Both the position numbers and the translations under genes were made by a program. The notes below the pieces were generated by a model, which had not been told where the DNA came from, searched no databases, and saw only the letters and a program-made list of their open reading frames with translations. 64,000 nucleotides of DNA from Escherichia coli. Lineage in GTDB: Bacteria; Pseudomonadota; Gammaproteobacteria; Enterobacterales; Enterobacteriaceae. This document shows positions 41,465 through 64,000 of the stretch, piece by piece; positions within the stretch are counted from its first letter, which is position 1, and each line of letters begins with the position of its first letter. Where the stretch lies: NCBI RefSeq assembly GCF_013122565.1, contig NZ_CP053258.1. One strand, given 5' to 3'.

Positions 41465-41473
41465 ATTACCACC

Positions 41474-43517: not shown

Positions 43518-48474
<4,957 letters not shown>

Positions 48475-48497
48475 AGAAAAATTCCTTTTATATTTTT

Positions 48498-50711
48498 TTA
48501 TTCAGAAACGTCCGGGGTAGGTAACGGGGCAATATCATCCGCAGTCATGGCTGTGCCGCCATCCGGATTCATATCAATGCCACTGCCAATGAGTTGCATA
48601 ACATCGCTGGTGTGCAGTAAAAGTTGTTTTCCGCAAAACTCAATCGAGCCATCCTTGTGTAATACAAGCGCTGCATTGCCGCAACGAAGGGTAAATTGAT
48701 CGCCAACATCCAGACGATATGTCGTTCCGACATTGATGGTTTGAGCCAGTTTGACGGAAAGACCATCATTTTTTGTGATGGTGGCATTACGGTCTTCTCC
48801 CACGCTGATGGTTTCATTTTTGACAATGGTTTTTATGCGATCGACCATGACCGTGTGGGTTTCATTGTTTTTTACCGTGGTATTGAGGTCTTTTTCCGCA
48901 TGGAACTTCACCTCTTCTGCCCCCGTTTTATCGTCAAAGCGCAGCATGTTTCCGTTGGTCGGCCCGCCATACAGCGAGTGGCTGAATATCCCGCTCTGCG
49001 AGGCCATACCCGGCAGTCCCCACGGCGGCATGGTGTCCTGGTTATAGGTGCGCCCTACAATGATCGGTAAATCCGGGTCGCCGTTTTTGAAATCCACCAG
49101 CACTTCCTGACCGATGCGCGGGATCTGGATCATGCCGAATCCTTTCCCTGCCCACGGATAGCTGACGCGGATCCAGCAGGAGCTGTTTTCGTCATTATTA
49201 CCGTAACGATCCCAGCCAAACTGCACCTTCACCCGTCCATATTTGTCCGTCCAGATTTCCTGCCCCGCCGGGCCGGTGACGATGGCGCTCTGCGGGCCTT
49301 TGGTGTGGGGTTTGCTCAGGGTTCGCTGTGGGCGGTAAACTTCGCTGGTTGGGTGCAGTTCAAACGTGGTGACATAGGTAAAATGCTGATCCTGGCCGCT
49401 GTGCTGCGCATTGTCCCGTAAAAACAGCGTGGTCTGTACCAGCAGGTATTCCTGATTAATTTCTGCCGTCGGGTGATTCATCAATGTAAAGGTGTACCCG
49501 GTCATGAGGGTACGGATATGACCGGCCCCATGTGCCCGGCTGCCTGGGCTACGCTGCGCTTCCATACGAATACGCGTCAACATCTCGCCTTCGCCCGTAG
49601 TGAAGTAATCACCAGGCCATTCGTAATGCTCGTATTCAGCATGACCGGTATCACGCGGACTGGCCACGGTACTTTTAAGCAGCGAACGAGGCTTCATAAA
49701 ATCAAAATCGTCCATCACCCACTTTCCAGTACGCAGCCTCTCACTGGCCGTAATGGTGTGAATAAATTCCTTATCCAGTTTCAGCCCTTCCTGGTGCCAC
49801 TCCACCAGTGGCGAGTCAGGGCACGCTTTATGACCATTGATGGCATCCGCCAGCACCAGCGTGTGGCTGTTCTCGCTGTGCTCAAACCACCAGTAAATTC
49901 CCCACTCCTGCATCAGGCGCTGGATGAAATCAAAATCCGTTTCACCGTACTGTACCTGCCAGGCACGAGGTGGATAATTTTCCACCAGCCGTTTTTCCAC
50001 CGGAAAGGAATATTCATCCAGTACTTCATCGAGAATATCCACCACGGTTTTATTCTGGAACGCTTTGTAGTCGCTGGTGTGGGTCAGCAGTTTCAGCCAC
50101 GGTTCAATGCGTAATTCATACGTTACCGAGCGGCCCTCATGGCCCACCACCCGCGCCGCTGTCACCAGCCCGCTGATATGCCGTTTGCCGCCGCCGTCCA
50201 GTTCGATATTGACGCACAGATCTTTGCCCACCATGGGCTGAAGCGGCAGGTTAGCAGCGGGGGAAACGTACCCCAGGTTCAGGGCGTCCGGCGTTTTAAG
50301 CTGTACTGTGTAGGAAAACAGATTCCCAAGCCCTTCCGAACCATTCATGCCTGCAAACAAAAGCATCTGCGGCGGCACCGCACTACCACTTACTGTGACG
50401 TTATGCGCCCCCGGACCACCTGCAGCAAGCGACGCCGCCGCATCCTGAACTGCACCAGCCATATCCGATATCCCTGCTGCGGCGGCTGCGGCTTGCGCAG
50501 CAGCTACTGCGGCTTTAACCAGACCTGACGGTTCCGGCAACGCACCAAACAGGTCCGCCGCTGCCTGTTCTACCATCTGCTCGGCTGCATCAGCTACATC
50601 GGTTGCGGCTGAACCAGGGCTTATACCACCACTTTCGCCAGCTATTGGTGGTGTGGTGATGACGGGTCCACCGTTTCCAACTGGTTTATTACCCGTAGAT
50701 ACAAAACTCAT
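48498..50711 (-). CDS. vgrG: T6SS spike protein VgrG (737 aa as the longest ORF, includes a ~100-aa Ala/Gly-rich N-terminal extension; true start uncertain)
   Basis: gp27/gp5-like VgrG body ([25 protein letters not shown]..., C-terminal ...[19 protein letters not shown]...); N-terminal [22 protein letters not shown]...[10 protein letters not shown] segment precedes the conserved start of the VgrG fold. Confidence 0.85.
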
Positions 50712-50735
50712 GATATTTGCTCCTTTAATACCGGA

Positions 50736-51122
50736 TTAAAATCTAGCCCCTGGTGGCCAAAAAATATAAGTAATAACTCTCCATTGCCCGTCTTTATAAT
50801 GAAACCAACATGTCAGATTCAAATCCCCCTGCAAATTCCAGAACATTTCCTTAATAGGAACATCTTGAAATTCAGGATCTGTTATGCGATAAGTTTGATT
50901 CAAGCCGATATAATACTCACCAACAAATTTATATCGTGGCCTCACGAACTCATGAGCAGGCGGCCCATATTTTTTCATAAAAAAGATGTCATTACTTCCA
51001 TCATGTATATCATTTTCTTCATAATATTTGGTGGATTGAGCAACTGCAGAAGGCTTGAAAACATTCACTGTAGTTATGTAAGTTATTGAAAGAAAAATCA
51101 CTATAATGCAGAAAAATTTCAT
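50736..51122 (-). CDS. Predicted periplasmic immunity protein 1 (signal peptide; paralogue of 52819..53181)
   Basis: 128 aa, MKFFCIIVIFLSITYITTVNVF... signal peptide; shares ...EFQDVPIKEMFWN..DLNLTCW.HYK.GQW.VI...WPPG..F with the paralogue; 4-nt overlap with upstream effector gene. Confidence 0.6.
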   Translation of the reverse strand: MKFFCIIVIFLSITYITTVNVFKPSAVAQSTKYYEENDIHDGSNDIFFMKKYGPPAHEFVRPRYKFVGEYYIGLNQTYRITDPEFQDVPIKEMFWNLQGDLNLTCWFHYKDGQWRVITYIFWPPGARF

Positions 51123-51820
51123 TTGGTTACATTCAATAAAGTAAATTTAGTTTCAGGCATTATGACATTCAACGTTATAGTTGCGTTTTTAAGGTATCGT
51201 TCCCGAAGCTCCATTCCCACATTCATCAACCCACTAATATCTCCAACATACGGAGACGAAGAATCATAATCATCATCTAAGTAACCAAGTACATGTCCGG
51301 CTTCATGAGGTATATTTACTTGCAACGTATTGTTACAGTTAATACATTTCGCTACTTTTTCCAGGTCCGCTGAATCAACATGAACCGTACTGTTTTTAAA
51401 ATCAACATATGTTCTTAAATCAGCACCAGGCAAAACCTTTGTTGCAATAACCAACCAGTCTTCATTCTGAGATGCAGAAATTATTCTTACATCAAAAGGC
51501 AAAGCTTTACCCTGAAATTTTTTAGCGAACTCAGATTCACCGGAAACAGAATAAGTTATTTTCCCATTCCATGCCTGCTGAACAGATAAATATATCGCTC
51601 GCATAAAAATAGCTTTTTCCCATATAGTCCAGTCATCTGTAACGGTATTATCCTTATACCACTCATACTTCCATCTTATCACAGCCGTAATCGAACCAGT
51701 ATTTTGATTTAATAAATACGTCCTCCTACCATCCTTATGTATAATGATATCGCCATCAATATTTGTTTTTTCATAGTATTCGGCCAGCAAACTATTCTCA
51801 TCATATTTAAGCTTGGTCAT
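51119..51820 (-). CDS. Candidate T6SS effector 1: HExxH zinc-metallopeptidase-like protein (233 aa)
   Basis: HEAGHVLGY motif plus conserved block LMNVGMELRERYL shared with the 268-aa paralogue; AT-rich; no signal peptide; followed by a signal-peptide protein. Confidence 0.6.
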   Translation of the reverse strand: MTKLKYDENSLLAEYYEKTNIDGDIIIHKDGRRTYLLNQNTGSITAVIRWKYEWYKDNTVTDDWTIWEKAIFMRAIYLSVQQAWNGKITYSVSGESEFAKKFQGKALPFDVRIISASQNEDWLVIATKVLPGADLRTYVDFKNSTVHVDSADLEKVAKCINCNNTLQVNIPHEAGHVLGYLDDDYDSSSPYVGDISGLMNVGMELRERYLKNATITLNVIMPETKFTLLNVTK

Positions 51821-52032
51821 TTTACTCTCATTAAATAATAATTATTTGTATCGAAAATATTATTTTATATATTACGAGTATTGCCCCTTCAGCCGCAGCG
51901 CATCCACATACCGTCCTTCACTGCAGGGCAAGATTACGAAAGCCCGCCCCCCGCAAGGACTGACGCGAGGTAGTTTCTGTCCATGGCTGCTTTTCTCATC
52001 TTACGTCTTAACCCTGCCTTGGTTTCGCCGTA

Positions 52033-52794
52033 CTACACCTGCCAGGCGCGGGGGGGATAATTTTCCACCAGCCGTTTTTCCACCGGAAAGGAATATTCAT
52101 CCAGTACTTCATCGAGAATATCCACCACGGTTTTATTCTGGAATGCTTTGTAGTCGCTGGTATGGGTCAGCAGCTTCAGCCATGGCTCAATGCGTAATTC
52201 ATACGTTACCGAACGGCCCTCATGGCCGACCACCCTCGCCGCCGTCACCAGCCCGCTGATATACCGTTTTCCGCCACCGTCCAGTTCAATGTTGACGCAC
52301 AGGTCTTTGCCCACCATGGGCTGAAGCGGCAGGTTAGCAGCGGGGGAAACGTACCCCAGGTTCAGGGCGTCCGGCGTTTTAAGCTGTACTGTGTAGGAAA
52401 ACAGATTCCCAAGCCCTTCCGAACCATTCATGCCTGCAAACAAAAGCAGCTGCGGCGGCACCGCACTACCACTTACTGTGACGTTATGCGCCCCCGGTCC
52501 ACCGGCAGCAATCGACGCCGCCGCATCCTGAACTGCACCAGCCATATCCGATATCCCTGCTGCGGCGGCTGCGGCTTGCGCAGCAGCTACTGCGGCTTTA
52601 ACCAGACCTGACGGTTCCGGCAACGCACCAAACAGGTCCGCCGCTGCCTGTTCTACCATCTGCTCGGCTGCATCAGCGACATCGGTTGCGGCTGAACCAG
52701 GGCTTATACCACCACTTTCGCCAGCTATTGGTGGTGTGGTGATGACGGGTCCACCGTTTCCAACTGGTTTATTACCCGTAGATACAAAACTCAT
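52033..52794 (-). pseudogene. vgrG: vgrG 5' fragment (N-terminal ~255 codons duplicated; body replaced)
   Basis: Near-identical to the first ~780 bp of vgrG at 49935-50711, including the Ala-rich N-terminal segment; homology breaks near 52017-52036. Confidence 0.75.
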
Positions 52795-52818
52795 GATATT
52801 TGCTCCTTTAATACCGGA

Positions 52819-53181
52819 TTAAAATTTGGATCCTGGCGGCCAATAAACTCGGGATATAACTATCCATTTACCATTTTTATAATGAAGCCAACATGTTAAA
52901 TTTAGATCTTTATTAACATTCCAAAACATCTCCTTAATAGGAACATCTTTAAATTCAGGATTATTTGAAGGGTAAGTCCGTTCTATGCCACCATAATAAA
53001 TACCTACAAAATCATGCCTTGGGTTTATAAAATAATGTTCAGGAGAACCATATTTTCTCACTAGTGAATCTTCATCATCCCCCCACTGAACATCTTTGTT
53101 ATGCATCTCACTGGCAAAAATATCTAGAGTTACAAGCAATATCAATAACGTAAAAAATAGAGCGATTTTCTTCTGGATCAT
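52819..53181 (-). CDS. Predicted periplasmic immunity protein 2 (signal peptide; paralogue of 50736..51122)
   Basis: 120 aa, MIQKKIALFFTLLILLVTLDIFA signal peptide; conserved C-terminal block with paralogue. Confidence 0.6.
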   Translation of the reverse strand: MIQKKIALFFTLLILLVTLDIFASEMHNKDVQWGDDEDSLVRKYGSPEHYFINPRHDFVGIYYGGIERTYPSNNPEFKDVPIKEMFWNVNKDLNLTCWLHYKNGKWIVISRVYWPPGSKF

Positions 53182-53984
53182 TTTATTACACTCGCAACAG
53201 AAAACGTAGTTAAGGGATATACTAAATTCAAGTCAATACAGACACCTTCCAGGTAGCGTTCCCGAAGTTCCATCCCAACATTCATTAACGCGGCAGTATC
53301 TATTTTATATTTAGACACAGGCTTACCAAACTTATCAAGTTCATATTCATCCTCCAGATAACGAATCATATGTCCAATTTCATGAACTATATTTACCTGA
53401 TAAAAACCACATATTGACTGATTCTCTGGAGCACATTTTTCTGATAACGAAGTATCTTTAAAATAAAAATGAGCAAACCGATTTTTCCAGTTAACATAAG
53501 GCCTGCCATCATCATTACCAGGAACGGTTCTTAATACGTCTACATTCCAGTGTTCTTTTTGATGGACCGGAATCATATTTATGCTGAAAGGCAATCTTTT
53601 ACTCTTGAATTTCTCAGCAAAATCAGAGTCCCCTGAGACAGATAAAAATATCTTATCATTCCATCCATAACAGATTGCAGAAAATGATTCATATATAAAA
53701 CTAACTTCATCCAGGTATGTCCAGTTATCTCCTACATTGTTCTGATTCACCCAGTTAAATTTCCATCTCATTAATAATGCAATGTCGCCTGTATCACTAT
53801 TCAGGATATATTCGCCATGTTCTGTATTCATCCTGAGACACTTCCCATCTTCTACGGTGTCAGGGCAAAACTTATGCATGAGTTTAATAAAGAATTCATG
53901 CGATAGATTTATTTTACTCTCTCCAACAACACCATCTACATGTGTTGTGAGCGAACCAGATTTATTCCCTGAAGAAGAACTCAT
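53178..53984 (-). CDS. Candidate T6SS effector 2: HExxH zinc-metallopeptidase-like protein (268 aa)
   Basis: HEIGHMIRY motif and LMNVGMELRERYL block; first ~10 codons and the 25 bp upstream resemble the vgrG 5' end (MSSSSGNKSGS vs [11 protein letters not shown]). Confidence 0.6.
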   Translation of the reverse strand: MSSSSGNKSGSLTTHVDGVVGESKINLSHEFFIKLMHKFCPDTVEDGKCLRMNTEHGEYILNSDTGDIALLMRWKFNWVNQNNVGDNWTYLDEVSFIYESFSAICYGWNDKIFLSVSGDSDFAEKFKSKRLPFSINMIPVHQKEHWNVDVLRTVPGNDDGRPYVNWKNRFAHFYFKDTSLSEKCAPENQSICGFYQVNIVHEIGHMIRYLEDEYELDKFGKPVSKYKIDTAALMNVGMELRERYLEGVCIDLNLVYPLTTFSVASVIK

Positions 53985-54311
53985 GCTATTGACTCCTTTA
54001 ATACTGGGGTAGAGATTTAGCCCACGACAGTCGTATTCCTGTTTTTTACATCCAATAAAATAGAATATTAATAAATTAGGATAATATTTTTACTTTACTC
54101 ACTCTACTTTCAATCTGAGTTCTCCGTACAATCGGGTTCTGACATTGAACCTTCCGACTGAAATACACCACTCCCCCCTCTATCCAGTCGCAACGCATCC
54201 ACATACCGCCCCCTTGCTGTTCTGCTGCCAGAACCATCCATGCCCCTGCTGCGCCTGCGTTAACATTTTTGCTAGCCAGCACGGTCACGGCAGGCAATTC
54301 CATGACATGTA

Positions 54312-54773
54312 CTACTCATCCGTACAACCCAGCCCCCGGCGCTGAACCACTTCACTGGCAAACGTTGCTCCGGTTTTTTTCATTATTCCCTGCTGGATTT
54401 TTTGTAACTCCGGGTATACAACCCGCTCACATTCATTTATTTCCCATATGTCACCCGTCTTAGGACTAACCGAAAACAACCCTAAATAGTCTGTTGCTCC
54501 AGCAGTCGGCGTATCATAGCCAAGACTAAAATCATAATATCCGGGATGAGGCGCATTGCCCTGACCATCCTGTAAATCTCCATCAATAAAAATCCCTTCC
54601 AGCGATAAATTATACTTTTGGTGCCTGAGTACAATAATAAGCAGTTTTTCCGCCTGTGCTTTCGTCATCCCTTCGCGGTTTATATCTGATAAATTAAATT
54701 CAGACGTATTCCCCTGAACGTAGCAAACCGCAGAGGCAAGAAGAAAAAAAACAAATATTATTTTACGGGGCAC
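54312..54773 (-). CDS. Predicted periplasmic immunity protein for the glucosaminidase-like effector (signal peptide)
   Basis: 153 aa, MPRKIIFVFFLLASAVCYVQG signal peptide; overlaps the upstream effector stop. Confidence 0.55.
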   Translation of the reverse strand: MPRKIIFVFFLLASAVCYVQGNTSEFNLSDINREGMTKAQAEKLLIIVLRHQKYNLSLEGIFIDGDLQDGQGNAPHPGYYDFSLGYDTPTAGATDYLGLFSVSPKTGDIWEINECERVVYPELQKIQQGIMKKTGATFASEVVQRRGLGCTDE

Positions 54774-55228
54774 GCCATTCTCCTTCCGACCATAATAATA
54801 ATGTCAGCAGTTTTTTTGGCATAATTATCTGTTCCGCCTGTGCTACTATCTCCAGAATTAAATCCGGCCTTTACCAGAGCATCACAGAAAGCCAAAGCAT
54901 CCTTTATGTCTCTGGCTGCATTACCATATTTTATTGCAAAAGATCGTGCACAGATTGAAAAAGACGGAAAAGTAGCCACCCGGGTTTTCTTGTTACCGTG
55001 CGGACGGATTTCGCCTGACTGAAATGATGCAGGGGCATGCAGGGAGAAATAGTTGTTATATTCCCTGGCAATACGGCCTGTACCATACTGGCTCTCCGCC
55101 GCGGCAAGCCCCAGAATATTTTCCACAGGAACATTAAGTTGTTTAGCGATTAATTCACATTCTTTCAGATGCTGCTGAACAAACCTTACTGCATTAACAT
55201 CATTACAGGCTTTGTCATAAGACCCCAT
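54758..55228 (-). CDS. Candidate T6SS glycoside-hydrolase effector (GH73 / FlgJ-type glucosaminidase-like, Tge-like)
   Basis: 156 aa; ILGLAAAESQYGTGRIAREYNNYFSLHA matches the GH73 catalytic-Glu region pattern (A..ES.wG.......NN.FG); no signal peptide; followed by a signal-peptide protein. Confidence 0.55.
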   Translation of the reverse strand: MGSYDKACNDVNAVRFVQQHLKECELIAKQLNVPVENILGLAAAESQYGTGRIAREYNNYFSLHAPASFQSGEIRPHGNKKTRVATFPSFSICARSFAIKYGNAARDIKDALAFCDALVKAGFNSGDSSTGGTDNYAKKTADIIIMVGRRMACPVK

Positions 55229-55255
55229 GATCCACTACTCCTTATCTGATTATTT

Positions 55256-56029
55256 TTAATGCTGCCGGATATCCAGCCGCAACGCATCCACATACCGCCC
55301 CTCGCTGTTCTGCTGCCAGAACCAGCCCTGCCCCTGCTGCGCCTGCGTCAGCATTTTGTCCGGCCAGCCCGGCCACGGCAGGTGGCGCACACCGGGCAGT
55401 TCCACTACCGGCACGTCCGGCAGGCCGGTGAGTTCCCGGCTACGCTGCGGTACACGTCGTAAGCCGCGTAGCCACTGCGCCCAGCGCGGCCCCGGTCGCC
55501 ACATCGCCCAGAGCTGGTCTGTCTGCTCCGCCAGTCGACCGCAGCGTTCTGTCTGTGGTGAGACATGAGCTGCCGTCAACTGCGCCAGCCAGTACAGCCA
55601 GCCCTTTGTGTCATCCAGGCTCTCTTCCAGCCATTCCCGCCCGGCACGCTGGTAAATCACCAGTGGCCACGACCTGCCCGTACTGTCACGTGAGGCGGTC
55701 AGCACCCCGGTCAGCCACTCATCGCGCCCGCCAATGGGGAGAAATCCCGGCGATAATACAAAGCTCCACGGTAGCGGATGGTGTTCCGGCACCTCCGTTT
55801 TCTCGCGCGGTGACAGGTGCATCCAACCGTCATTTACTCCGGTTTTCGCAGCATCCGTTCCTTCCGGCAGAACAATATGCCGCCCCTGTCCCAGCCACGT
55901 CTGCTGGTTCAGCCACGCCTGCCACACCTGCCCATCGTTCGCGCTCACCCGCCAGCGCACGTAGTCCCGCTGATCCGGCAGTCTGCCGAACATCGCCGGA
56001 ACCGATACCACCGCAGCCCGGCGCATCAC
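55256..56029 (-). CDS. tagF: T6SS-associated protein TagF-like (DUF2094)
   Basis: 257 aa directly downstream of and overlapping tssM; 3'-end sequence recurs as ~30-100 bp remnants at 54196-54300 and 51888-51912. Confidence 0.6.
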   Translation of the reverse strand: MMRRAAVVSVPAMFGRLPDQRDYVRWRVSANDGQVWQAWLNQQTWLGQGRHIVLPEGTDAAKTGVNDGWMHLSPREKTEVPEHHPLPWSFVLSPGFLPIGGRDEWLTGVLTASRDSTGRSWPLVIYQRAGREWLEESLDDTKGWLYWLAQLTAAHVSPQTERCGRLAEQTDQLWAMWRPGPRWAQWLRGLRRVPQRSRELTGLPDVPVVELPGVRHLPWPGWPDKMLTQAQQGQGWFWQQNSEGRYVDALRLDIRQH

Positions 56030-59000
56030 AGCGCTCGCTCCGGGCAGGCGAAGCGTTGCAGTAGCCCACGGTTCACCGGGTCAAAATCCCGTCCTGCGGT
56101 GATTTCCAGCACCACCCGCCGCCCGTCAAAGCTATATTCAACCTGCTGTGTTCCCCGTACCGCCGTCTCCTGCGCGTTACCCGCATCCAGCAGGTGAAAC
56201 AGCGCCCACGGTCCGTTAGTCAGCAGCGTCGAGGTGTCCTGGCGGATGCGCGGGCTGGCGGTGATTTCCGCCATTGAGCCGTTGCGCGGCCCCGGCCAGT
56301 TCACTTTCAGCGGTCTGACCGGGCCGTGAGCGTAACGCAGCACCTGACCGTCGATATCAATCACCAGTTCAGTGATTGCAGGGTCCATATCCACGACGCG
56401 GACCTGCATCGCCCAGGAAAACTTTTTCCCGCCTTCACCGTTAAAAAAAACGCTGCGGATCTGTTTCGCCTCCTGAAACGGCGTCAGGTCCGGCCCCTGT
56501 AAGGTCATGTTGCCTTCGGTCGGTTTGTAGCGCCACGGGTTGCTGGCGGTGTCCGCCAGCGGGGCCAGTTGCTTCGTCCAGAACGCATCCAGCACACCGC
56601 CGCTGGCAAAGATATGGTTAAAATCGTCCGCGCTGACCTCCTGCGGGCTGTCGGTAAAGGGGTAGCGCCCGTCAATAGCATCACGGCACTCATCGCCAAT
56701 CACCGCTTCCATCTGCGCGTTCAGCACTTCACCGGTGCCGGCGTTGATTTTGCGCGTTCCCTGCTGCGTGAGATCCAGCAAAATATTTTTCAGCGGTGCG
56801 GGCAGTTTTGCCGCCTCCAGTTGCAGTTTATCCGCCGCCGAAATACGGCCAGGTAATGTGCTCGCTGCCAGCGCGCTGTCGGCGATGGTGAGCTGGGTGT
56901 AATATTCATTGAGCATTGTCAGCAGCGAATTTAACTGCGGCGCGCCACCAGTCTGCCCGCTGTCTGTCCGCCCGGAAACCACTTCCCGCAAGGCGGCGAA
57001 ACGGTCATCCACCAGTGATTTCTCCAGCCGCTCTTCCGGGTGGATGTCCTGTAACAGCTTTGCCGTCTGCCCCGCTTTTCCCACATTGCCGGAGAGCCGG
57101 TCCTGCGCACGCTGGGCCATCTGCTTTTGTCTGGCCTGCGCATCCAGCGGCGGCACCAGCGTGGTCTGCTCCACCACCGCTTTACTCAGGCGCATCAGCG
57201 GGGAATCCGGCGAGGCCAGGGTACGCAGCACCTGAAGGTCATACGCCAGCCCGGGACTGCCGTCTTCCCCGGCACTGTTGATGCTGTGAATACTTGCCAG
57301 AAAATCCTGCCAGCGGCGGGCATATTCAGCCAGGTACAGGCGGCGTACCTCACGGGTAACCGGGAGTTCCTGCCCCGGCAACTGGCTCATCACAATATCC
57401 GTTGTTTTTTTTTGCGCGTTTTCCCGGCCCATCACCCAGGCATCGTCCGCTGATGCGGCTGCGACAAACTCCGACAGCCGTTTGTCGAACAGTTCCCGGT
57501 AGCCTTCGCGAGTGAAGATGCCGGGCACGCCCCTATCCAGCGGCGCGCCATCCGTGCGGACAAAAACCGTTCCCGCATCCGCGCCCACAGCGCGAACCAG
57601 CGAAAACTCCTGCGGTGCTTCGCTCTCCATGGAAGCCAGGGCTCGAGTGTAGATACGCTCGGTGCTGGTATGGCCGTCAAGGAAGGCTCGCGCCTGGCGG
57701 ATCAGCCCCTCATCTTTTTCCCAGGGCGAATGCACCACGCGGCTGCCGTCAAACAGGGCATCGATATGCTCCAGCACGGCGGCGCGACCGCCGAACTCCG
57801 CCACGCTGTCGCGGTTGTCCAGGTCGTTCAGCACCCAGGCGTGGATCTCCGCCGCGTTGTATTTATCCTCGTGGTCCTTATCGAGGTTCAGCAACAGATA
57901 AACATGCAGGGCGTCATAGGCGGCTTTGCTGTCCTGACGCGCAATCGCATCCGAAAGCACGTATTCCATGCGTTTCACCAGCGGTGGCAGCAGTAACTGG
58001 TCCAGCAGGCGGTCATACAGGGATGCGACGCTCTCCATCACCGGCGGAACGCTGTAAAGACCATAACGCCAGGCCAGCGGCGGCGAGTCCGGGTCCAGTC
58101 CCGGCCAGGCAGAGAGCGCCCGTGCCTGGTTCAGCAGGGCCGGAACAGGCTGCATAGCAGGTTTTCCGGTATAGGCTTTGACATCACCATCCAGTTGGGT
58201 CGTCCGGCTGGCGATTTCATTCAGATAACCGCTGTTACCCTGCTGGCTGCCCTGCATTCCCTGCCACAACCAGAAAGCCAGCGCCAGTACCAGCAGATGC
58301 CCGCCAGTGCGCAGCAGGCGGTAACGCCAGGCCCACTGAAGGTTCGGCTCCACCAGGTGCGCTTCGCGGAAGATAAACTGCGTCAGTAGATCGTGCAGGA
58401 AATAGCTGCGGTTGCCGTCCGGCAGGGTATGGGATGGGGAATCAGCCTTCCCTTTGATAGCACGGACAAAACGCTGCCAGATGCCCGTCTTGTCAGCCAC
58501 GGCGTCTGCCTGCGCCTGCGCGGCGCTGGTAAAAAATACGCCGCGCAGGGTGTTGTTAAGCTGGGTGGCGTCAAATTTTGAATCGAGGAAAATCTGCTCA
58601 ATGGCTTCCAGCAGCGGCGCACCCAGCGCGGCAAATTCACGCGGGAAGCGATAGAGCCGCTGGCGGCTTTTAAGGTCGTACTCTTCCTGCAACCGGGTAT
58701 CCAGCCCCTGATCCAGCCGCAGGGTCAGGTTTGCCAGTTCCTGGCTACAGAGCGCATGCAGCGACTGCGGATCGCTGGCGTGACGCCTGCGGCTGTATGG
58801 CAGAGTAAAGCCCCAGACCTGGGCGCGCAGGTGGCTGGTCAGCCCGTGGAAATACTCCGTAAAGCCCGGCAGCAGATCCATCTTGGTGACAACCAGATAG
58901 ACCGGAAAACGAATACCCAGCGTCTCCCGCAGTTCCGCCAGCCGCGCACGCAGGGCCGCACAGGCAGCCAGCCGTTCCGCCGGGGACTGCGCAGTCAGAT

Positions 59001-59892
59001 CCGCCACGTTCAGCGTCAGGATCACGCCGTTGAGCGGTGCGCCGGGGCGGTGTTTACGCAGCAGTCCCAGAAACCCGTGCCACTCCCCGGCGTTGCGCTG
59101 GGTCGCGCTGATTTCGCCACCGTCATCGTGACGGGCATAGCGCCCGGCGGTGTCAATAAGCACTGCTTCGTTGGTAAACCACCAGTCGCAATGCAGCGTT
59201 CCGCCGCCCGGCACGGTGAGGATATGCGCGGTTTGCTCCATCTGCTCCGCCAGCGGAAACTGCAATCCGGTGTTGAGCAGTGCTGTGGTTTTACCGTCGC
59301 CGGGGCTACCGATAACCATGAACCAAGGCAGTTCGTACAGAAAACGTTTTCCTTCCAGTACGTTACGCCAGCCCGGCAGGTCTACGCGCAGCTGTTTCAG
59401 TTGCCGAATAGCGCGAGTGACAATATGGCTGACGGTGCGTAAGTCGGCTTTAATTTCCCCGGCCACCGGTACGTCTTCCCCGCGCGGATGCAGGAAACGG
59501 CGCAGCAGTTGTTCGTCCAGACGCAGCGCCCGCCACAGCCGGTACAGGCCATACAGCGCATAAGACAGAAGGATCAGGCCGATAAGCGTCAGACGCAGCC
59601 ACAGCGGCGCAAATGGATGAACATCACCGAAAGCCAGCAACGGTGAGACAAAGCCGATAACCAGGCACAGAACCGTAACGCCAATGATGCTCATAGACCA
59701 GTTAACCAGCCACAGTGCGAGGAACATCAGTAACAGAACGATGGTGACTAACCGACTTCCCACGGACGCGAGTGGATGCAGGGTGTCAAACGCGACCAGC
59801 GGCCCAATAAACCAGACCAGCAACGCCAGCATTACCAGGCCAACAATGGCCAGCGCGCGGCGGGAAAACAGCATACTGAGAAATTTTTGCAT
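56026..59892 (-). CDS. tssM: T6SS membrane core protein TssM (IcmF-like)
   Basis: 1288 aa; N-terminal TM helices, Walker A GSPGDGKTT, large periplasmic C-terminal region; GC-rich. Confidence 0.9.
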   Translation of the reverse strand: MQKFLSMLFSRRALAIVGLVMLALLVWFIGPLVAFDTLHPLASVGSRLVTIVLLLMFLALWLVNWSMSIIGVTVLCLVIGFVSPLLAFGDVHPFAPLWLRLTLIGLILLSYALYGLYRLWRALRLDEQLLRRFLHPRGEDVPVAGEIKADLRTVSHIVTRAIRQLKQLRVDLPGWRNVLEGKRFLYELPWFMVIGSPGDGKTTALLNTGLQFPLAEQMEQTAHILTVPGGGTLHCDWWFTNEAVLIDTAGRYARHDDGGEISATQRNAGEWHGFLGLLRKHRPGAPLNGVILTLNVADLTAQSPAERLAACAALRARLAELRETLGIRFPVYLVVTKMDLLPGFTEYFHGLTSHLRAQVWGFTLPYSRRRHASDPQSLHALCSQELANLTLRLDQGLDTRLQEEYDLKSRQRLYRFPREFAALGAPLLEAIEQIFLDSKFDATQLNNTLRGVFFTSAAQAQADAVADKTGIWQRFVRAIKGKADSPSHTLPDGNRSYFLHDLLTQFIFREAHLVEPNLQWAWRYRLLRTGGHLLVLALAFWLWQGMQGSQQGNSGYLNEIASRTTQLDGDVKAYTGKPAMQPVPALLNQARALSAWPGLDPDSPPLAWRYGLYSVPPVMESVASLYDRLLDQLLLPPLVKRMEYVLSDAIARQDSKAAYDALHVYLLLNLDKDHEDKYNAAEIHAWVLNDLDNRDSVAEFGGRAAVLEHIDALFDGSRVVHSPWEKDEGLIRQARAFLDGHTSTERIYTRALASMESEAPQEFSLVRAVGADAGTVFVRTDGAPLDRGVPGIFTREGYRELFDKRLSEFVAAASADDAWVMGRENAQKKTTDIVMSQLPGQELPVTREVRRLYLAEYARRWQDFLASIHSINSAGEDGSPGLAYDLQVLRTLASPDSPLMRLSKAVVEQTTLVPPLDAQARQKQMAQRAQDRLSGNVGKAGQTAKLLQDIHPEERLEKSLVDDRFAALREVVSGRTDSGQTGGAPQLNSLLTMLNEYYTQLTIADSALAASTLPGRISAADKLQLEAAKLPAPLKNILLDLTQQGTRKINAGTGEVLNAQMEAVIGDECRDAIDGRYPFTDSPQEVSADDFNHIFASGGVLDAFWTKQLAPLADTASNPWRYKPTEGNMTLQGPDLTPFQEAKQIRSVFFNGEGGKKFSWAMQVRVVDMDPAITELVIDIDGQVLRYAHGPVRPLKVNWPGPRNGSMAEITASPRIRQDTSTLLTNGPWALFHLLDAGNAQETAVRGTQQVEYSFDGRRVVLEITAGRDFDPVNRGLLQRFACPERAL

Positions 59893-60179
59893 TATTGTTC
59901 AGAACTCCATGCGATAATCAGTAATAGCAAAATGCCGCAAGCTGAAAAAATCCTTCCAGTACGGGCTACTGAAAGAAAATAAAGAGCAATCTGAACAATT
60001 ATCAAAATAAAATAAATCAACATTTTGATTATTTCTCTGTTCCCATTTCCCTGAGGCAACGTTGTCATTGAAGGATCCATATCCTGCATCCATTGATACT
60101 CATTCCCGGAAAAAAGCATGATGATGATCAGACCCATAATGAATAACAACCATCCTGATATCTGAATTATTCTTCTCAC
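59892..60179 (-). CDS. Small polytopic membrane protein (95 aa), candidate immunity/accessory protein
   Basis: Two to three hydrophobic helices (WLLFIMGLIIIMLF, IYFILIIVQIALYFL, ACGILLLLIIAW); AT-rich; stop overlaps the tssM start. Confidence 0.5.
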   Translation of the reverse strand: MRRIIQISGWLLFIMGLIIIMLFSGNEYQWMQDMDPSMTTLPQGNGNREIIKMLIYFILIIVQIALYFLSVARTGRIFSACGILLLLIIAWSSEQ

Positions 60180-60187
60180 GAAGACTC

Positions 60188-60871
60188 CTAATGGGCGATG
60201 AGTAAATTAGAGAAATGCAACCAGTTGTTGACAATAAAATTGCCATAGCTGGTATCTTCCTTTATTTTCTCCAGAGTAAGCGACATACCCCGGTTATAAC
60301 GGGCACCAATAATTCTTATCTGCTCTTTCGTCAGGTGTGGTAAGGAGGACTGAAATTCATCTCTTTCAGCTAATTTATAAATATGTCTGGCCACAAGTTG
60401 AATATTAAAAATATCATGCTGGAGGCAATTTGCCAGTTCACGCAATTGAGAGGTATCCATTTTTGACTCATCAAGCCCAAGCGTTCTGGCTGCGGTTCGC
60501 AATTGCATACTCACTGCACCAAAAGATGTTTTTTCTGGTCTCGAAGTTATTGTGATATGTTCATCAATCCACTCAGGCCCACTCCAGTCAATAGTCCGAG
60601 CATCAAATGCCAGCATATCTACAATACTGGGATCCCCCCCGACTTCTATCCAACACACACCTGCCAGTAAAGGTGCTGGCAAATTATATGTATTGGCAGC
60701 CGACGTTATCAGAAGATGGTTATGTTTTACCCAGCCATCTTTGAAATAACGCCCAAACGGTACACCACCGCCCCATTTTTTTGGCGCTAATTTCCAGAAA
60801 AGAAATTCGGTCACGCCCCATACCGGTGAATGATTCGATGCATTGCAGTCCAGATTATTCATTTTTCTCAC
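60188..60871 (-). CDS. Unknown 227-aa protein inserted between tssL and tssM (candidate effector or peptidoglycan-remodelling accessory protein)
   Basis: AT-rich (~40% GC) in a GC-rich operon; contains LLAGVCWIEVGG and FGAVSMQLRTA, loosely reminiscent of lytic transglycosylase / Cys-hydrolase motifs; no confident family assignment. Confidence 0.5.
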   Translation of the reverse strand: MRKMNNLDCNASNHSPVWGVTEFLFWKLAPKKWGGGVPFGRYFKDGWVKHNHLLITSAANTYNLPAPLLAGVCWIEVGGDPSIVDMLAFDARTIDWSGPEWIDEHITITSRPEKTSFGAVSMQLRTAARTLGLDESKMDTSQLRELANCLQHDIFNIQLVARHIYKLAERDEFQSSLPHLTKEQIRIIGARYNRGMSLTLEKIKEDTSYGNFIVNNWLHFSNLLIAH

Positions 60872-62184
60872 TCCACCACCAGAATTTCCACCCGACGGTT
60901 CTGCGCCCGTCCGGTTTTAGTGCTGTTATCGGCCACCGGTACGGTATCTCCTTTCCCGACGACCCGAATCCGGCTGACCGGAACACCACCGGACGTCAGC
61001 AGTGAAGCCACTTCCGTCGCCCGTTTTTCCGACAACACCTGGTTGGAGGGGAATTCAGCGGAGTGGATCGGCTGACTGTCGGTGTGTCCGGTCACCGTCA
61101 CCGCGCCGCCCACACGCGCAATCTCTCGCGCGGCCTTATCAATCACCGGGCTTAGCGCATCATTCACGGTTTTCTGCCCTGGTATAAACATCGTATCGCC
61201 ACGAAAGATTACACGGCTGTGATGGTCATCTTCCTCCACCGTCAGCAGGCCACGGGCGATTTCGTTCGCCAGCAGGATTTTCAGCCGCAGTTTATGCACT
61301 GGAACGGGTGGCGGCGGTAGATTTTTACCAATGGCGTCGATACGCTGTTGTACGGTTTCGGTAGCGAGGTTCATCCGGTGGCTGTAAAGGCCAAACAGCG
61401 TCAGCATCACCAGCAGAGCGATTCCGGCGCTCAGCCAGACCGGCACCCGGCGCATCCGCCGCATTCGCCCACTGACGGCACCGGCAAAACCCGGCGAGAG
61501 CATCGGCGTGATTGGATCGCGACGCTGGACCAGTTGAGTCAGCAGTTGCTGACGGATATCGTCCAGTTGCTTACGCCCGTCAGGCCGTACACTGTAGCGG
61601 CCTTCAAAACCCAGCCCCAGAATGTGGTAGATGATCTCCAGTACATCGTTGTGCTCCTGGAAGCTTGCGGCCAGACGCCCAATTATCTGAAACAGCTTGA
61701 TGCCGCCTTCACTTTCGCCATGAAAAGTGACCAGCAGGCTTTTTCCAGCCCAGACACCGCGCCGTCCCCAGGTGGTGTTGTTGGCGGCTTCGTCCAGCGA
61801 AGTGCATAGGCAATAACGCACAGCCAGCACATGTTCGCGGCGAAGGTTTGCTTGATCGCATAACGTCTGATATCGACGAACTTCACGCTCCAGTAGGGCG
61901 CGATAATGTTCGACAAAACCAGGGGATAGTTCACGGGGCATTTGCGCCAGCGCGCATAACAGAGGGCTGGCCGCCGCCAGGAGAGGATTCACAGCACCAG
62001 TGATCTCAGCCAAACGGAGCTTCAAATCTGGCCCGTCTTCAACCACCACCTTTATATCTTCCCTGCGAAGGCTGTCCTGGATGAGCGTATCGTAACCTTC
62101 ATTATCAGGCGACCTTGTTCCCTTCATTGAAGTCTGTAATGGCAGAGTATTCACCGCAGGTTGCGTCAGAATATCGTCGGTCAT
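60868..62184 (-). CDS. tssL: T6SS membrane protein TssL (DotU-like) with C-terminal OmpA-like peptidoglycan-binding extension
   Basis: 438 aa; DotU-like N-terminal domain, TM helix (VWLSAGIALLVMLTLFGL), C-terminal OmpA-like domain (VTVTGHTDSQPIHSAEFPSNQVLSEKRATEVASLL...NRRVEILVVE). Confidence 0.85.
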   Translation of the reverse strand: MTDDILTQPAVNTLPLQTSMKGTRSPDNEGYDTLIQDSLRREDIKVVVEDGPDLKLRLAEITGAVNPLLAAASPLLCALAQMPRELSPGFVEHYRALLEREVRRYQTLCDQANLRREHVLAVRYCLCTSLDEAANNTTWGRRGVWAGKSLLVTFHGESEGGIKLFQIIGRLAASFQEHNDVLEIIYHILGLGFEGRYSVRPDGRKQLDDIRQQLLTQLVQRRDPITPMLSPGFAGAVSGRMRRMRRVPVWLSAGIALLVMLTLFGLYSHRMNLATETVQQRIDAIGKNLPPPPVPVHKLRLKILLANEIARGLLTVEEDDHHSRVIFRGDTMFIPGQKTVNDALSPVIDKAAREIARVGGAVTVTGHTDSQPIHSAEFPSNQVLSEKRATEVASLLTSGGVPVSRIRVVGKGDTVPVADNSTKTGRAQNRRVEILVVE

Positions 62185-63524
62185 TTATCGCGAACTCCCC
62201 ACAGCTCCAGCTCCAGGCCTGGAAACTCTCCGGCGGTATGCATTGCCATACCGCCATAGCGGGCGATATGTTCCCACAACACGCCGTCGCGGCGGATGTC
62301 GTAATAGATGTAACCGGACTGAAACGGGATCTGACGCGGTGGCACTGGCAGCACCTGTAGAACAAGACCAGGAAGGTGCGAGCGAATTAGTTCCGGCAGG
62401 CGTTCTGACGGCCCTATTTTGGTCTGAGCCGAAAAATGTTGTAGTAAGGTGTCGGCGGACATCTGTGCCTTCACCGCCAATACTAACGAGCTGAAATCTG
62501 ACAGTTCGGTAGGTTCAACCACCGCATTGAGAATACCGTAAATTCCCTCTTCCAGAGGGATTCGCTGCGCCCCACGTATTAGCACAGCATTCAGCAGATA
62601 CTGAACCTCGTCCACTACCGATTTCAGCCCGGCATAGGGCGTCAAATGCTTATATTCTTTATATTCTTCCGGACGGCGTGTTTGCGGGCGCACGTAGGTA
62701 GAGAGTTCTCCGGCAAGTGCGCAGAGGTTACGATACAGCACCTCAGGCGACAGCGGTGTTTTCGACATATGGATCAGTAAGGGGCCGAAACGATTAAGAA
62801 CTTGCAGAAGCAGGTAATCAGACACTTCCGCCGCTTCATGACCGTGTTTGTCGCTCCCCGTCAATCGTTCCGCCAGTGAATTTGCACGCATTTTTATCAG
62901 ATCGTTAATCCACGATAGCCAGGTACATATCAGCGTACTGGCCTGGTAGTTCGCCACTGGCGGGATCAACTCTTTGTCTATATCGACCCGACCATCGGGA
63001 TGCAGCGCCGTGATGCGTGTCAGCGGCAGGCCGATCCACGCGTCTGTCACCGCCTTTTCCGGTAATAGTCGCAAGCGTAGGTGGCTAAGTTGCAGCAGTT
63101 GCGCGCCGCGCCCTAGCGAATTGGCATCACGGATTTCATTTTCATGCACCGAAAAGCGTGCCAGTGATTCAGGGTTATTGTCGAAGCTTGTTTCTTCACT
63201 GTTCGGCGTACGTATTGGCACAGCCAGATAAATCAACTGGTTAAGATGTTCTGGAAGGATGGTCAGAGGCGGCGGGAGTGGTGTGTGACCCGGCGCATTA
63301 AAAGGAGTACCGTCAGCAAATACTCCGGAAGCCTTTGTAAGTACCAGTTTTCCGATGTTCAGCGCCTCACTACCAATTCCATACTCATTGAACCCCCAGA
63401 AAAAAGGTGAAAGAGGCAAACTGCGATAATGAATGACATGTTCCAGATAGCGTTCCTGCTGCTGAAACATCTGTGGCAGCAAAAATTGTCCTTCACTCCA
63501 GACCACCCGGTTATTCCAACTCAT
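62181..63524 (-). CDS. tssK: T6SS baseplate protein TssK
   Basis: 447 aa, MSWNNRVVWSEGQFLLPQMFQQQERY... typical TssK N-terminus. Confidence 0.9.
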   Translation of the reverse strand: MSWNNRVVWSEGQFLLPQMFQQQERYLEHVIHYRSLPLSPFFWGFNEYGIGSEALNIGKLVLTKASGVFADGTPFNAPGHTPLPPPLTILPEHLNQLIYLAVPIRTPNSEETSFDNNPESLARFSVHENEIRDANSLGRGAQLLQLSHLRLRLLPEKAVTDAWIGLPLTRITALHPDGRVDIDKELIPPVANYQASTLICTWLSWINDLIKMRANSLAERLTGSDKHGHEAAEVSDYLLLQVLNRFGPLLIHMSKTPLSPEVLYRNLCALAGELSTYVRPQTRRPEEYKEYKHLTPYAGLKSVVDEVQYLLNAVLIRGAQRIPLEEGIYGILNAVVEPTELSDFSSLVLAVKAQMSADTLLQHFSAQTKIGPSERLPELIRSHLPGLVLQVLPVPPRQIPFQSGYIYYDIRRDGVLWEHIARYGGMAMHTAGEFPGLELELWGVRDK

Positions 63525-63527
63525 AAT

Positions 63528-64000
63528 TTACTCATCCCGTTCTTTAATCACTATGGCGCTTTGCTCTATGCCAGCATCCAGTTCGACTTTTTTCTTCGGC
63601 ATAAAGCGGCTGTACCAACTTTTTTCCGGTGGCTCAGGAATTTTATATGTAGCCCGCCAGACCGATTTTCCCAGATTGCGGTATCCGGCGAGGATCCCCA
63701 GCGTGGTGGTTTCCTTATTGAGGGCGCGGCGCAATTTTTTCTCCTCGCCCGGACGCAGGATAAAGCTGTCGCGGTGGAGTAAATCATCAGCAAGAACAGC
63801 CTTGTCATTGTCCTGAAGGGACCACCAGTCCGCCGCCGTGAAAGCTGCATCATTTTTCAGTTCATAAACGCGTATCTCTATGGGCGCGGCTTTTTTCTGA
63901 TTGTCAGGATTCACCTTATCGGAAGCCTTAATCACCAGATCGAGTCTTTGTGACATCAGGTCCGGCACGTCGTCGCTGTCAATGCTGCACCCGGAAAGCA
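63528..64000 (-). CDS. tssJ: T6SS outer-membrane lipoprotein TssJ (5' end off-window)
   Basis: Minus-strand frame continues past the window end through a lipobox (...LSGCSIDSDDVPDLMSQ...); the track ORF start MPDLMSQ is internal. Confidence 0.75.
   Translation of the reverse strand, partial: LSGCSIDSDDVPDLMSQRLDLVIKASDKVNPDNQKKAAPIEIRVYELKNDAAFTAADWWSLQDNDKAVLADDLLHRDSFILRPGEEKKLRRALNKETTTLGILAGYRNLGKSVWRATYKIPEPPEKSWYSRFMPKKKVELDAGIEQSAIVIKERDE

Follow-up and report, generated by a model that had tools for sequence, protein, structure and literature searches.

The membrane-complex segment of a probable i3, SPI-6-type type VI secretion system at aspV in Escherichia coli

The type VI secretion systems (T6SSs) of E. 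coli are sorted into three classes, T6SS-1 (i2), T6SS-2 (i1) and T6SS-3 (i4b) (Journet & Cascales, as cited in PMC10562709 and PMC12282107). Two i3 systems described in other bacteria, the well-studied Salmonella SPI-6 (SCI) and the prototype H1-T6SS (HSI-I) of Pseudomonas aeruginosa, offer further points of comparison. SPI-6 is inserted at the tRNA-Asp gene aspV (PMC2907695) and holds three cargo regions, VR1-VR3, with Tge2 located in VR2, together with orphan Rhs toxins and a tssI-eagR-rhs module (PMC11669294). These features of site and layout are shared by the E. coli island described here, which reaches the right end of the 64,000-nucleotide stretch that we analysed (the window). We conclude that positions 55256-64000 are very probably the membrane-complex segment, tssJ-K-L-[cargo pair]-tssM-tagF, of an i3 T6SS that looks intact and is the Escherichia equivalent of SPI-6 in Salmonella; the i3 assignment was made from best matches and the order of the genes.

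Relation to described T6SS classes

An earlier note on this DNA, made from the sequence alone, had suggested comparison with representatives of T6SS-1, -2 and -3, and none of the three fits. The 13 components of the island are 19-48% identical to those of the i1, i2 and i4b systems of E. coli 042 (42-48% for the sheath proteins TssB/TssC), and the gene orders of all three 042 systems differ from that of the island. TssC is 73.5% identical to H1 TssC1 of P. aeruginosa (5n8n; 803 bits, versus 375 bits for the i1 protein VipB of V. cholerae), and TagJ matches HsiE1 (4uqx) at 1e-47. Of the accessories typical of i3, TagJ (ImpE/HsiE1) and TagF are present, as is a TssL of the long form that includes a peptidoglycan-binding domain. 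Among SPI-6 proteins identity was measured on Hcp and VgrG only: Hcp shows 95.7% identity to Hcp1 of S. Typhimurium SPI-6 (STM0276, 5xhh), and VgrG matches S. Typhimurium VgrS (PDB 9mlp) at 88.6% identity over 643 aa. The island reads tssA-G-F-E-tagJ-tagK, divergent from clpV-tssB-tssC-(cargo)-hcp-tssJ-K-L-(cargo)-tssM-tagF-(cargo)-vgrG-eag-rhs, and the order of its core genes is presumably that of the SPI-6 sci genes.

Cargo families are also held in common with SPI-6, Tge2/Tgi2 in the window and a Tae4/Tai4 or BPSL0067/STY0301 pair in the VR1 of relatives. The island differs from SPI-6 in its host genus, Escherichia, in the use of the tssL-tssM gap as an extra variable cargo slot (orf227/orf95) and in its VR2, which includes a duplicate 5' fragment of vgrG as well as two uncharacterised HExxH pairs. 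Moreover, the visible part of the E. coli island has no saf or tcf fimbrial operon, and in other E. coli (the E2 and JNE151685 lineage) the same island lies at aspU, adjoining integrase fragments. With the H1-T6SS it shares, besides TssC, TagJ, the long TssL (TssL1) and TagF, the use of periplasm-acting cell-wall enzymes as effectors, the apparent fold of orf227 resembling Tse3. Unlike H1, the E. coli cluster lacks the threonine-phosphorylation genes (Fha1, PpkA/PppA, TagQRST), no homologue of Fha (TagH), PpkA or PppA being annotated in E. coli LHM10-1 or the near-identical contigs viewed; it also has TagK and Rhs/Eag cargo, and the order around hcp/tssJ is not alike.

Two known E. coli systems could be mistaken for this one. 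T6SS-2 (i1; OI#7/AGI-1 of EHEC, APEC O1, UMN026 and EAEC 042, EC042_0210-0226) is the island usually found at aspV in E. coli and occupies the identical chromosomal site (PMC2808357, PMC5363993), in the yafV-aspV hotspot, likewise with a Rhs element on the yafV side. However, it belongs to an unrelated subclass: the 042 aspV island is ordered tssBCEFG-tagH-tssJK-icmH-tssH-vasI-tssA-tssM-vasL-hcp, with TagH/VasI/VasL instead of TagJ/TagK/TagF, and protein identity is 25-42%. A more sensitive ('distant') blastn search gave no DNA similarity to it; tssK-tssL matched in 115 of 5426 genomes, every time at 90% identity or above. We therefore regard identity with T6SS-2 as refuted and its probability as negligible. 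The T6SS-1 class (i2; EAEC Sci-1, CFT073 PAI-metV, ST131) is tied to Salmonella SCI by the history of the name 'sci', and both are antibacterial, their cargo being linked to vgrG, but Sci-1 combines a short TssL with a separate OmpA-family protein, has a single orientation and another gene order, and the identities are low (TssK 24.6%, TssM 21.8%, TssC 44%). The TssK of the island scores only 85 bits against EAEC Sci-1 TssK (5m30), versus 282 bits against the TssK structure 5y0e. On these matches, the Sci-1 organisation and the protein identities, this reading is likewise refuted and can be given almost no weight.

Gene content and predicted working

The features of the locus are collected in Table 1. 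The earlier note had read tagF, tssM, tssL, tssK and a partial tssJ as colinear on the minus strand, with an OmpA-like peptidoglycan-binding domain fused to TssL. The domain was borne out, and the five genes are indeed colinear and uninterrupted, with profile scores far beyond chance. Two small ORFs between tssL and tssM had been missed, and the left limit given, 55256, marks where tagF ends; the island itself extends further, with T6SS cargo and vgrG running left to 34374.

Table 1. Features of the T6SS locus in the window (positions are those of the 64,000-nucleotide stretch)
Feature	Position	Strand	Description and matches
tssJ (partial)	63528..64000	-	Outer-membrane lipoprotein; residues 21-177 of 177, cut at window end; PF12790 at 2.5e-37, TIGR03352 123 bits
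tssK	62181..63524	-	Baseplate subunit; PF05936 at 1.5e-134, TIGR03353 400 bits
tssL	60868..62184	-	438 aa, long ('evolved') form; PF09850 (DotU) 1.9e-60, PF00691 (OmpA) 2.2e-16; TIGR03350 'TssL long form' 164 bits (cutoff 140)
orf227	60188..60871	-	224-227 aa; candidate peptidoglycan glycosidase effector, Tge/Tse3-like, putative SLT-like fold
orf95	59892..60179	-	95 aa, 3 TM helices; candidate immunity partner of orf227
tssM	56026..59892	-	1288 aa; TIGR03348 1058 bits (cutoff 388); PF14331, PF06761, PF06744, PF21070
tagF	55256..56029 (start 56026/56029)	-	PF09867 at 1.1e-13; TIGR03373 39.6 bits, slightly under cutoff 41.2
Tge2-like glucosaminidase effector	54758-55228	-	PF01832 at 9e-10
Tgi2PP-family periplasmic immunity protein	54312-54773	-	PF21576 at 1.4e-17; signal peptide
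o268 + o120	52819..53984	-	o268 HEIGH (HExxH), candidate metallopeptidase effector; o120 signal peptide, candidate immunity
vgrG 5' fragment	52033-52794	-	253 codons; PF05954 model positions 2-121 only
ISAs1/H-repeat remnant	51935-52021	-	87 bp, ends vgrG fragment; 96.6% identical to K-12 yafF region
o233 + o128	50736..51820	-	Diverged paralogues of o268/o120; HEAGH motif, signal peptide
vgrG (tssI)	48498..50711	-	Full-length spike, 737 aa; PF05954 at 1.9e-101, PF22178, PF04717
Eag/DcrB chaperone	48031-48474	-	PF08786 at 2.4e-35
Main Rhs effector	43871-48010	-	prePAAR, PAAR, YD shell, C-terminal deaminase-like toxin
Candidate Rhs immunity protein	43518-43877	-	119 aa
Orphan Rhs cassette 1: Tox-SHH + SUKH immunity	41474-43312; 40976-41464	-	Pfam
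Orphan Rhs cassette 2: GIY-YIG-like + LRR protein	39360-40820; 38489-39340	-	Pfam
Orphan Rhs cassette 3: unassigned toxin + 101-aa ORF	36699-38315; 36377-36682	-	
Orphan Rhs cassette 4: LHH nuclease + SUKH immunity	35170-36297; 34730-35179	-	Pfam
SymE-family ORF	34402-34683	+	Pfam

The full-length tssJ, read from the near-identical contig L003 (GCA_052983875.1; 9464-9997), encodes 177 aa, with the lipobox LSGC at residues 22-25. TssL consists of a cytoplasmic DotU domain, one TM segment (at about residues 246-264, judged by hydropathy) and, in the periplasm, an OmpA-like peptidoglycan-binding domain, whose best match is P. aeruginosa TssL1 (4b62). In TssM, N-terminal TM helices are joined to a cytoplasmic NTPase domain, with the Walker A motif GSPGDGKT at residue 195, and to a periplasmic IcmF C-terminal domain. 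PGAP names the tagF orthologue 'TagF domain-containing protein'; in other T6SSs TagF is a post-translational repressor of firing.

From what is generally known of T6SSs, TssJ at the outer membrane together with TssM and TssL would form a trans-envelope channel, in which TssM would be an inner-membrane protein with an NTPase domain and a periplasmic domain, and TssL, anchored in the same membrane, would tether the complex to peptidoglycan by its fused domain. Thus, a separate TagL would not be needed. TssK would dock the TssEFG-VgrG baseplate onto the TssJLM channel. Inside the TssBC sheath an Hcp tube, capped by VgrG and a PAAR-Rhs tip, would be fired into a neighbouring cell as the sheath contracts, ClpV would recycle the sheath and TagF would probably restrain the system post-translationally.

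The predicted cargo comprises antibacterial cell-wall enzymes (the Tge2-like protein, the Tse3/SLT-like orf227 and two HExxH proteins) and a deaminase-tipped Rhs protein, each of these putative effectors adjoining a predicted immunity gene. The putative immunity proteins carry signal peptides or TM segments and the effectors have none. The Tge2-like/Tgi2PP pair, downstream of tagF, opens the part of the island that corresponds to VR2 of SPI-6. The o268/o120 pair had no family match in profile searches, and o233/o128 is 38-40% and 44% identical to it (tblastn); the o233/o128 module is 96.8% identical in L024, one of the strains in which the island is reduced to a scar. The stretch 52022-53060 is a duplicate of 49939-50977 at 90.6% identity. 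Pfam matches of the Rhs module are PF25799, PF05488, PF05593 and PF24241.

Island boundaries, integrity and the orf227/orf95 pair

Sequence past 64000 comes from near-identical strains and not from the window's own genome. Contig L003 differs from window positions 52826-64000 at 2 of 11,175 bases, and L005 and L021 are 100% identical to positions 62232-64000. Past 64000 these contigs carry tssJ, hcp, two small ORFs, tssC, tssB, two small ORFs and clpV, followed in the divergent orientation by tagK, tagJ, tssE, tssF, tssG and tssA. The earlier note had placed the remaining core genes (tssA-G, hcp, clpV) there, which these contigs support; tssI (vgrG) lies inside the window. [quoted passage not shown]

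The suggested link to aspV was found as well. L021 ends inside a tRNA-Asp gene 129 bp past tssA, and its 159-bp tail is identical to L004, a 98.5% relative, in which dnaQ and rnhA come next, so that the tRNA-Asp gene is aspV. E. coli LHM10-1 (97.3% identical) shows the full layout yafV ... T6SS ... tRNA-Asp-dnaQ. K-12 was rightly said to lack the island: the aspV-yafV interval of MG1655 is 2.4 kb long (yafT, ykfM, yafU', yafF'), its yafT being a remnant of the T6SS-2 aspV island and not of the SPI-6-type island. K-12 homology to the window ends 26 bp past yafV; the left edge of the island, adjoining yafV, is at 34374 (K-12 and LHM10-1 homology ends at 34373/34376). The whole island, of about 43 kb, fills the yafV-aspV interval, and the window holds 34374-64000 of it. 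Direct repeats bounding the island, which the earlier note had proposed to locate, were not found: no tRNA-Asp-derived repeat occurs in the window (up to 3 mismatches in 30 nt) or near yafV, and the tssA-aspV interval of L004 and L021 has no integrase gene, so that both marks of an integrase-mobilised tRNA-linked island (an integrase by the tRNA and direct repeats) were absent there.

Judging by its intact ORFs, the T6SS may function. Pseudogenes in close relatives, with internal stops in tssL and tagJ of LHM10-1 and one in tssK of JNE151685, indicate that the island decays in some lineages, and the segment could itself be a non-functional remnant, left from an island in decay that has ceased to build an apparatus. 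Some 30 complete genomes reduced to a scar tssA'-tssM'-vgrG', and the vgrG fragment and IS remnant within the window, agree with such decay. However, the core genes of the window (tssJ in part, tssK, tssL, tssM, vgrG) and of the contigs are full-length and of the expected size, and Walker A motif, lipobox and OmpA domain all survive, which makes a remnant quite unlikely. A second alternative concerns orf227, a candidate Tse3/SLT-like peptidoglycan glycosidase effector with orf95 as its candidate 3-TM immunity protein. By analogy with MltE, which is reportedly recruited by TssM in EAEC, orf227 might not be secreted but act as a housekeeping lytic transglycosylase, dedicated to the system, that opens the producer's wall for TssJLM insertion. 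Its apparent SLT-like fold and motifs and its place exactly between tssL and tssM would suit that role. On the other side, sequence reading finds neither signal peptide nor lipobox, hence no Sec route into the producer's periplasm, and the best structural match is Tse3, itself a T6SS effector. Nor is the slot constant: Escherichia sp. E1V33 and relatives in Enterobacter and Citrobacter keep the core genes but lack the pair or have others in its place, and other E. coli have a Rap1a/Tai immunity gene there. The low GC of the orf227/orf95 stretch (0.44 versus 0.61 in neighbouring genes) and the small membrane protein as partner, as in effector/immunity pairs, also argue against a housekeeping enzyme, which we consider unlikely. 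The candidate effector/immunity pair remains our preferred reading; orf95, with three hydrophobic segments and a weak DUF2645 match (0.013), co-varies in presence with orf227 across relatives, and orf227 has a homologue in Salmonella at 80% identity.

Distribution and meaning in E. coli

Among complete E. coli genomes the island is present in about 2%, and eroded scars in a further 0.5% or so. The SPI-6-type T6SS is an ordinary system that is rare in E. coli and missing from the three-class E. coli scheme. More tentatively, and with somewhat less than even confidence, we propose that a fourth T6SS class (i3, SPI-6-type), located at the tRNA-Asp genes aspV/aspU, has been overlooked in E. coli and its near relatives. 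It may be the older occupant of the hotspot, one that Salmonella, Citrobacter and Enterobacter have as well and that in most E. coli has been eroded or has given way to the i1 island. Its cargo would include uncharacterised families of effectors, namely a widespread SLT/Tse3-like protein of 222 aa encoded between tssL and tssM, and HExxH proteins whose immunity partners are periplasmic.

The locus leaves the view of how T6SSs work unchanged, and may supply a few candidate antibacterial effectors, as read from the sequence. The yafV-aspV hotspot holds two unrelated T6SS classes within one species; in Salmonella, SPI-6 and SPI-20 both lie at aspV. If the fourth class is real, large surveys that screen i1, i2 and i4b alone would miss it, and a survey of 131,610 E. 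coli genomes screens three classes only (PMC12282107). Since an intact-looking locus lies outside all three classes, strains recorded as 'T6SS-negative' or as 'aspV island present' may be misclassified.

Gene content of the island

The earlier note had placed tssJ (partial), tssK, tssL, tssM and tagF colinearly on the minus strand at 55256-64000, and this holds: the gene row is uninterrupted and profile matches agree with it. The list had missed only an ORF pair, orf227 and orf95, between tssL and tssM. TssM retains a Walker A motif, GSPGDGKT, at residue 195 as read from the sequence; a sequence search of TssM against the PDB gave nothing at E <= 1e-3 and did not inform the type. The 20 codons of tssJ lost at the window edge are readable in a near-identical contig, with a lipobox (LSGC) directly after. 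The T6SS genes of the proposed span are thus real, but the span itself was too short. Sequence homologous to K-12 and other E. coli begins again at 34373-34376, 26 bp past yafV, so that the island takes up 34374-64000 of the window and extends past its end.

Features of the island within the window
Feature	Position	Strand	Evidence or remark
SymE-family type I toxin ORF	34402-34683	+	PF08845 at 8.5e-15
Four orphan Rhs C-terminal cassettes	34730-43312	-	Tox-SHH, GIY-YIG-like, unknown and LHH tips
prePAAR-PAAR-Rhs protein	43871-48010	-	deaminase-like tip
DcrB/Eag chaperone	between full vgrG and Rhs protein, left of tagF	-	
vgrG, full	48498-50711	-	
o268/o120 and o233/o128, bicistronic pairs	within 50736-53984	-	no family match
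vgrG 5' fragment	52033-52794	-	
Tge2-like glucosaminidase and Tgi2PP-family immunity protein	54312-55228	-	
tagF	55256-56029	-	PF09867 at 1e-13
tssM, 1288 aa	56026-59892	-	TIGR03348, 1058 bits; IcmF N-terminal, middle, helical and C-terminal domains
orf95, 95 aa	59892-60179	-	
orf227, 224-227 aa	60188-60871	-	
tssL	60868-62184	-	DotU + OmpA; TIGR03350 "long form" above cutoff
tssK	62181-63524	-	TIGR03353, 400 bits
tssJ, cut by window end	63528-64000	-	TIGR03352, 123 bits

The region left of tagF is rich in cargo. The orphan Rhs cassettes share core-end repeats (89-95% identical) with different tips, and each is paired with an immunity gene of its own (SUKH, LRR or small). Unusually for an Rhs immunity gene, one of these candidates (38489-39340) encodes a leucine-rich-repeat protein of 283 aa. 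The o268/o120 and o233/o128 pairs flanking the vgrG fragment are diverged paralogues (38-44% identical), in which o268 and o233 carry an HExxH motif and o120 and o128 have signal peptides; they are candidate metallopeptidase effector/immunity modules. The SymE-family ORF lies beside yafV, at the very border of the island, and is absent from strain LHM10-1, the closest annotated relative.

A stretch of 1039 bp is duplicated (52022-53060 versus 49939-50977, 90.6% identity), taking in the 5' end of vgrG and the sequence upstream of it. An 87-bp ISAs1/H-repeat remnant (51935-52021) terminates the truncated vgrG copy and shares 96.6% identity with the yafF pseudogene region of K-12, and 50641-52367 is 96.8% identical to a module kept in strains with only a scar of the island, such as E. 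coli 2018-02-2CC. Together, the duplication, the remnant and the shared module suggest recombination between island variants.

Continuation beyond the window and insertion at tRNA-Asp genes

Contigs near-identical to the window were reached through an exact-sequence look-up of TssK. GCA_052983875.1 and window 52826-64000 disagree at 2 of 11,175 positions, and a Logan assembly (L005/L021) is 100% identical across 62232-64000. Onward from 64000, these contigs carry tssJ, hcp, a BPSL0067-family/STY0301-family pair, tssC, tssB, two small ORFs and clpV, then, divergent from clpV, tagK (NF033418, 550 bits), tagJ (ImpE), tssE, tssF, tssG and tssA. The remaining core genes, expected beyond 64000, are therefore present in near-identical strains and would be so in the window's own genome. 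Only vgrG departs from this expectation, as it lies to the left, inside the window.

L021 ends within tRNA-Asp, 129 bp beyond tssA, and its final 159 bp are identical to L004, a contig from a 98.5% relative, in which tRNA-Asp(GTC) is followed by dnaQ, rnhA, yafS, gloB and mltD. The right junction of GCA_052983875.1 was not recovered, its contig not being returned by an exact TssA look-up. LHM10-1, 97.3% identical over 93% of window 44000-64000, holds the full interval from yafV through the T6SS to tRNA-Asp and dnaQ in one annotated record, and the aspV-yafV interval of K-12 MG1655 measures just 2.4 kb (yafT, ykfM, yafU' and yafF' only). Taken together, the near-identical contigs, LHM10-1 and the MG1655 layout support the suggestion of an aspV-linked T6SS island that K-12 lacks. 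The direct repeats thought to bound it did not appear: no partial tRNA-Asp copy or junction repeat exists at the yafV end, where the sole shared word is a 10-mer expected by chance (E ~0.5), and no integrase lies between tssA and aspV in the window's lineage.

TssK relatives were sought in contigs, with one genome per species. They were found in Escherichia sp. E1V33 (96%), E. coli E69 (93%), Enterobacter sp. ENT03 (89%) and Citrobacter amalonaticus (89%), the other matches being only distant Thiomonas and MAG hits. Core proteins are 77-100% identical among these four, and the cargo slots vary. In the largest E. coli group (~95.2% DNA identity; e.g. E2 and JNE151685), the island sits not at aspV but at aspU, the other tRNA-Asp gene nearby, which closes rrnH. 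A truncated dkgB bounds it on the opposite side, and IS-disrupted integrase fragments and a HigA gene adjoin the tRNA; the yafV-aspV junction of these strains is empty. Two different tRNA-Asp genes have thus been used within E. coli. Moreover, 2018-02-2CC and ~30 other complete genomes keep only a scar at aspV, made of a tssA 3' fragment, 536 bp of tssM (window 59219-59754), vgrG', o233/o128 and an Rhs fragment. Taken together, the sites, the missing integrase and repeats and the scars suggest a formerly integrating element with tRNA-Asp genes as its targets, later fixed, rearranged or eroded. Internal stop codons occur in tssL and tagJ of LHM10-1 and in tssK of JNE151685; the window copies are intact. 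The SPI-6-type class is undergoing inactivation in some lineages.

Among 5426 complete E. coli genomes, the best identity to the flanks of the island is 95.9% (1-12000) and 97.3% (24000-34400), so the source is a somewhat divergent Escherichia lineage. Within the first 12 kb of the window lie fdeC, an integrase gene and a gene for manganese catalase by tRNA-Thr (11733-11808).

Class of the secretion system

Three T6SS classes are recognised in E. coli, T6SS-1 (i2), T6SS-2 (i1) and T6SS-3 (i4b) (PMC12282107, PMC10562709, PMC10711316), and the familiar aspV island of the species is T6SS-2 (PMC2808357, PMC5363993). Using strain 042, a carrier of each, as reference, 13 components were compared by BLASTP; the earlier note had proposed such a comparison for tssK/tssM. 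Identities were 19-48% throughout (to i1, i2 and i4b respectively: TssK 32, 25 and 25%; TssM 25, 22 and 19%; TssC 42, 44 and 48%) and the gene order differs from all three 042 systems, so the system belongs to none of them. Gene order and identity rule out both T6SS-2 (i1) and T6SS-1 (i2) membership. In sensitive blastn searches, tssK-tssL DNA matched 115 of 5426 complete E. coli genomes, all at >=90% identity and none at 65-90%; some part of 55256-64000 was matched in 145 genomes. The prevalence of the system is ~2% of complete E. coli genomes. Over its aspV-proximal 1.2 kb (yafT region), K-12 shares 88% identity with the beginning of the 042 i1 island and therefore retains, at the aspV hotspot, a remnant of that other T6SS class rather than of the window's class.

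Structural matches point elsewhere. TssC scores 803 bits (73.5% identity) against TssC1 of the P. aeruginosa H1 system (5n8n) and just 375 bits against VipB; TagJ and the C-terminal domain of TssL match HsiE1 and TssL1, respectively. Hcp shares 95.7% identity with Hcp1 of S. Typhimurium SPI-6 (5xhh) and also matches Hcp2 (5xeu), and VgrG shares 88.6% identity with 9mlp (VgrS) over 643 aa. The identities of 5xhh and 5xeu follow bioRxiv 10.1101/2024.12.20.629533, and the 9mlp chain includes an 11-residue segment given there for VgrS. SPI-6 is a Boyer group III (i3) system sited at aspV (PMC2907695), and its cargo layout, with VR1, VR2 and VR3, tssI-eagR-rhs modules and Tae, Tge and Rhs effectors (PMC11669294), is the layout found at the window locus. 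From these matches and this layout, we conclude that the system is probably i3, SPI-6-type, outside the three counted E. coli classes. The link to SPI-6 is drawn from the Hcp1, Hcp2 and VgrS structures in the PDB, since the TssK scan returned no Salmonella SPI-6 match. We found no literature description of a SPI-6-like or i3 T6SS in E. coli, although an earlier one may exist.

A variable slot between tssL and tssM, and the proposed mechanism

The orf227/orf95 region is a GC trough (0.44 versus ~0.61). The pair is kept in LHM10-1 (95%) and E69 (77%), different ORFs stand there in E1V33, Enterobacter and Citrobacter, and a Rap1a/Tai immunity gene occupies the position in other E. coli; between tssL and tssM lies a cargo slot of variable content. 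orf227 matches nothing in Pfam and NCBIfam and has no signal peptide in its sequence. It has 316 homologues of ~222 aa in Beta- and Gammaproteobacteria (51-63% identity; Salmonella 80%), a widespread and unannotated family, and an SLT/Tse3-like fold was noted for it. The invariant motifs of the family (CWIEVGGDP, TSFGxVSxQ, GARYNRG) resemble, in our own reading, the E-S, GLMQ and AYNxG motifs of family-1 lytic transglycosylases, and orf95 has three hydrophobic segments, read as three TM helices. Such motifs might also be borne by a cell-wall remodelling enzyme dedicated to the system; we regard this as unlikely beside a pair that is exchanged for other ORFs among relatives. orf227 and orf95 are rather a probable Tge-like effector and an immunity protein in the membrane, their site being a fourth variable slot.

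Following established T6SS biology and the domains found, TssJ, TssL and TssM would form an envelope-spanning complex, anchored to peptidoglycan by the OmpA-like domain of TssL and joined by TssK to a TssEFG-VgrG baseplate. Contraction of the TssBC sheath would drive Hcp and VgrG, tipped by PAAR-Rhs, into neighbouring bacteria, with periplasm-acting enzymes carried along, and ClpV would recycle the sheath. TagF of P. aeruginosa and Agrobacterium exerts post-translational repression via Fha; no Fha, PpkA or PppA is annotated in the cluster, in the near-identical contigs and LHM10-1.

To conclude, the cluster noticed at the window edge is real and its interpretation is supported; the apparatus is a textbook T6SS of a well-studied subclass. 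The novelty is modest, taxonomic and genomic: a probable SPI-6-type (i3) T6SS in Escherichia at tRNA-Asp sites, rare in E. coli and outside the three-class scheme, with a few uncharacterised cargo candidates.
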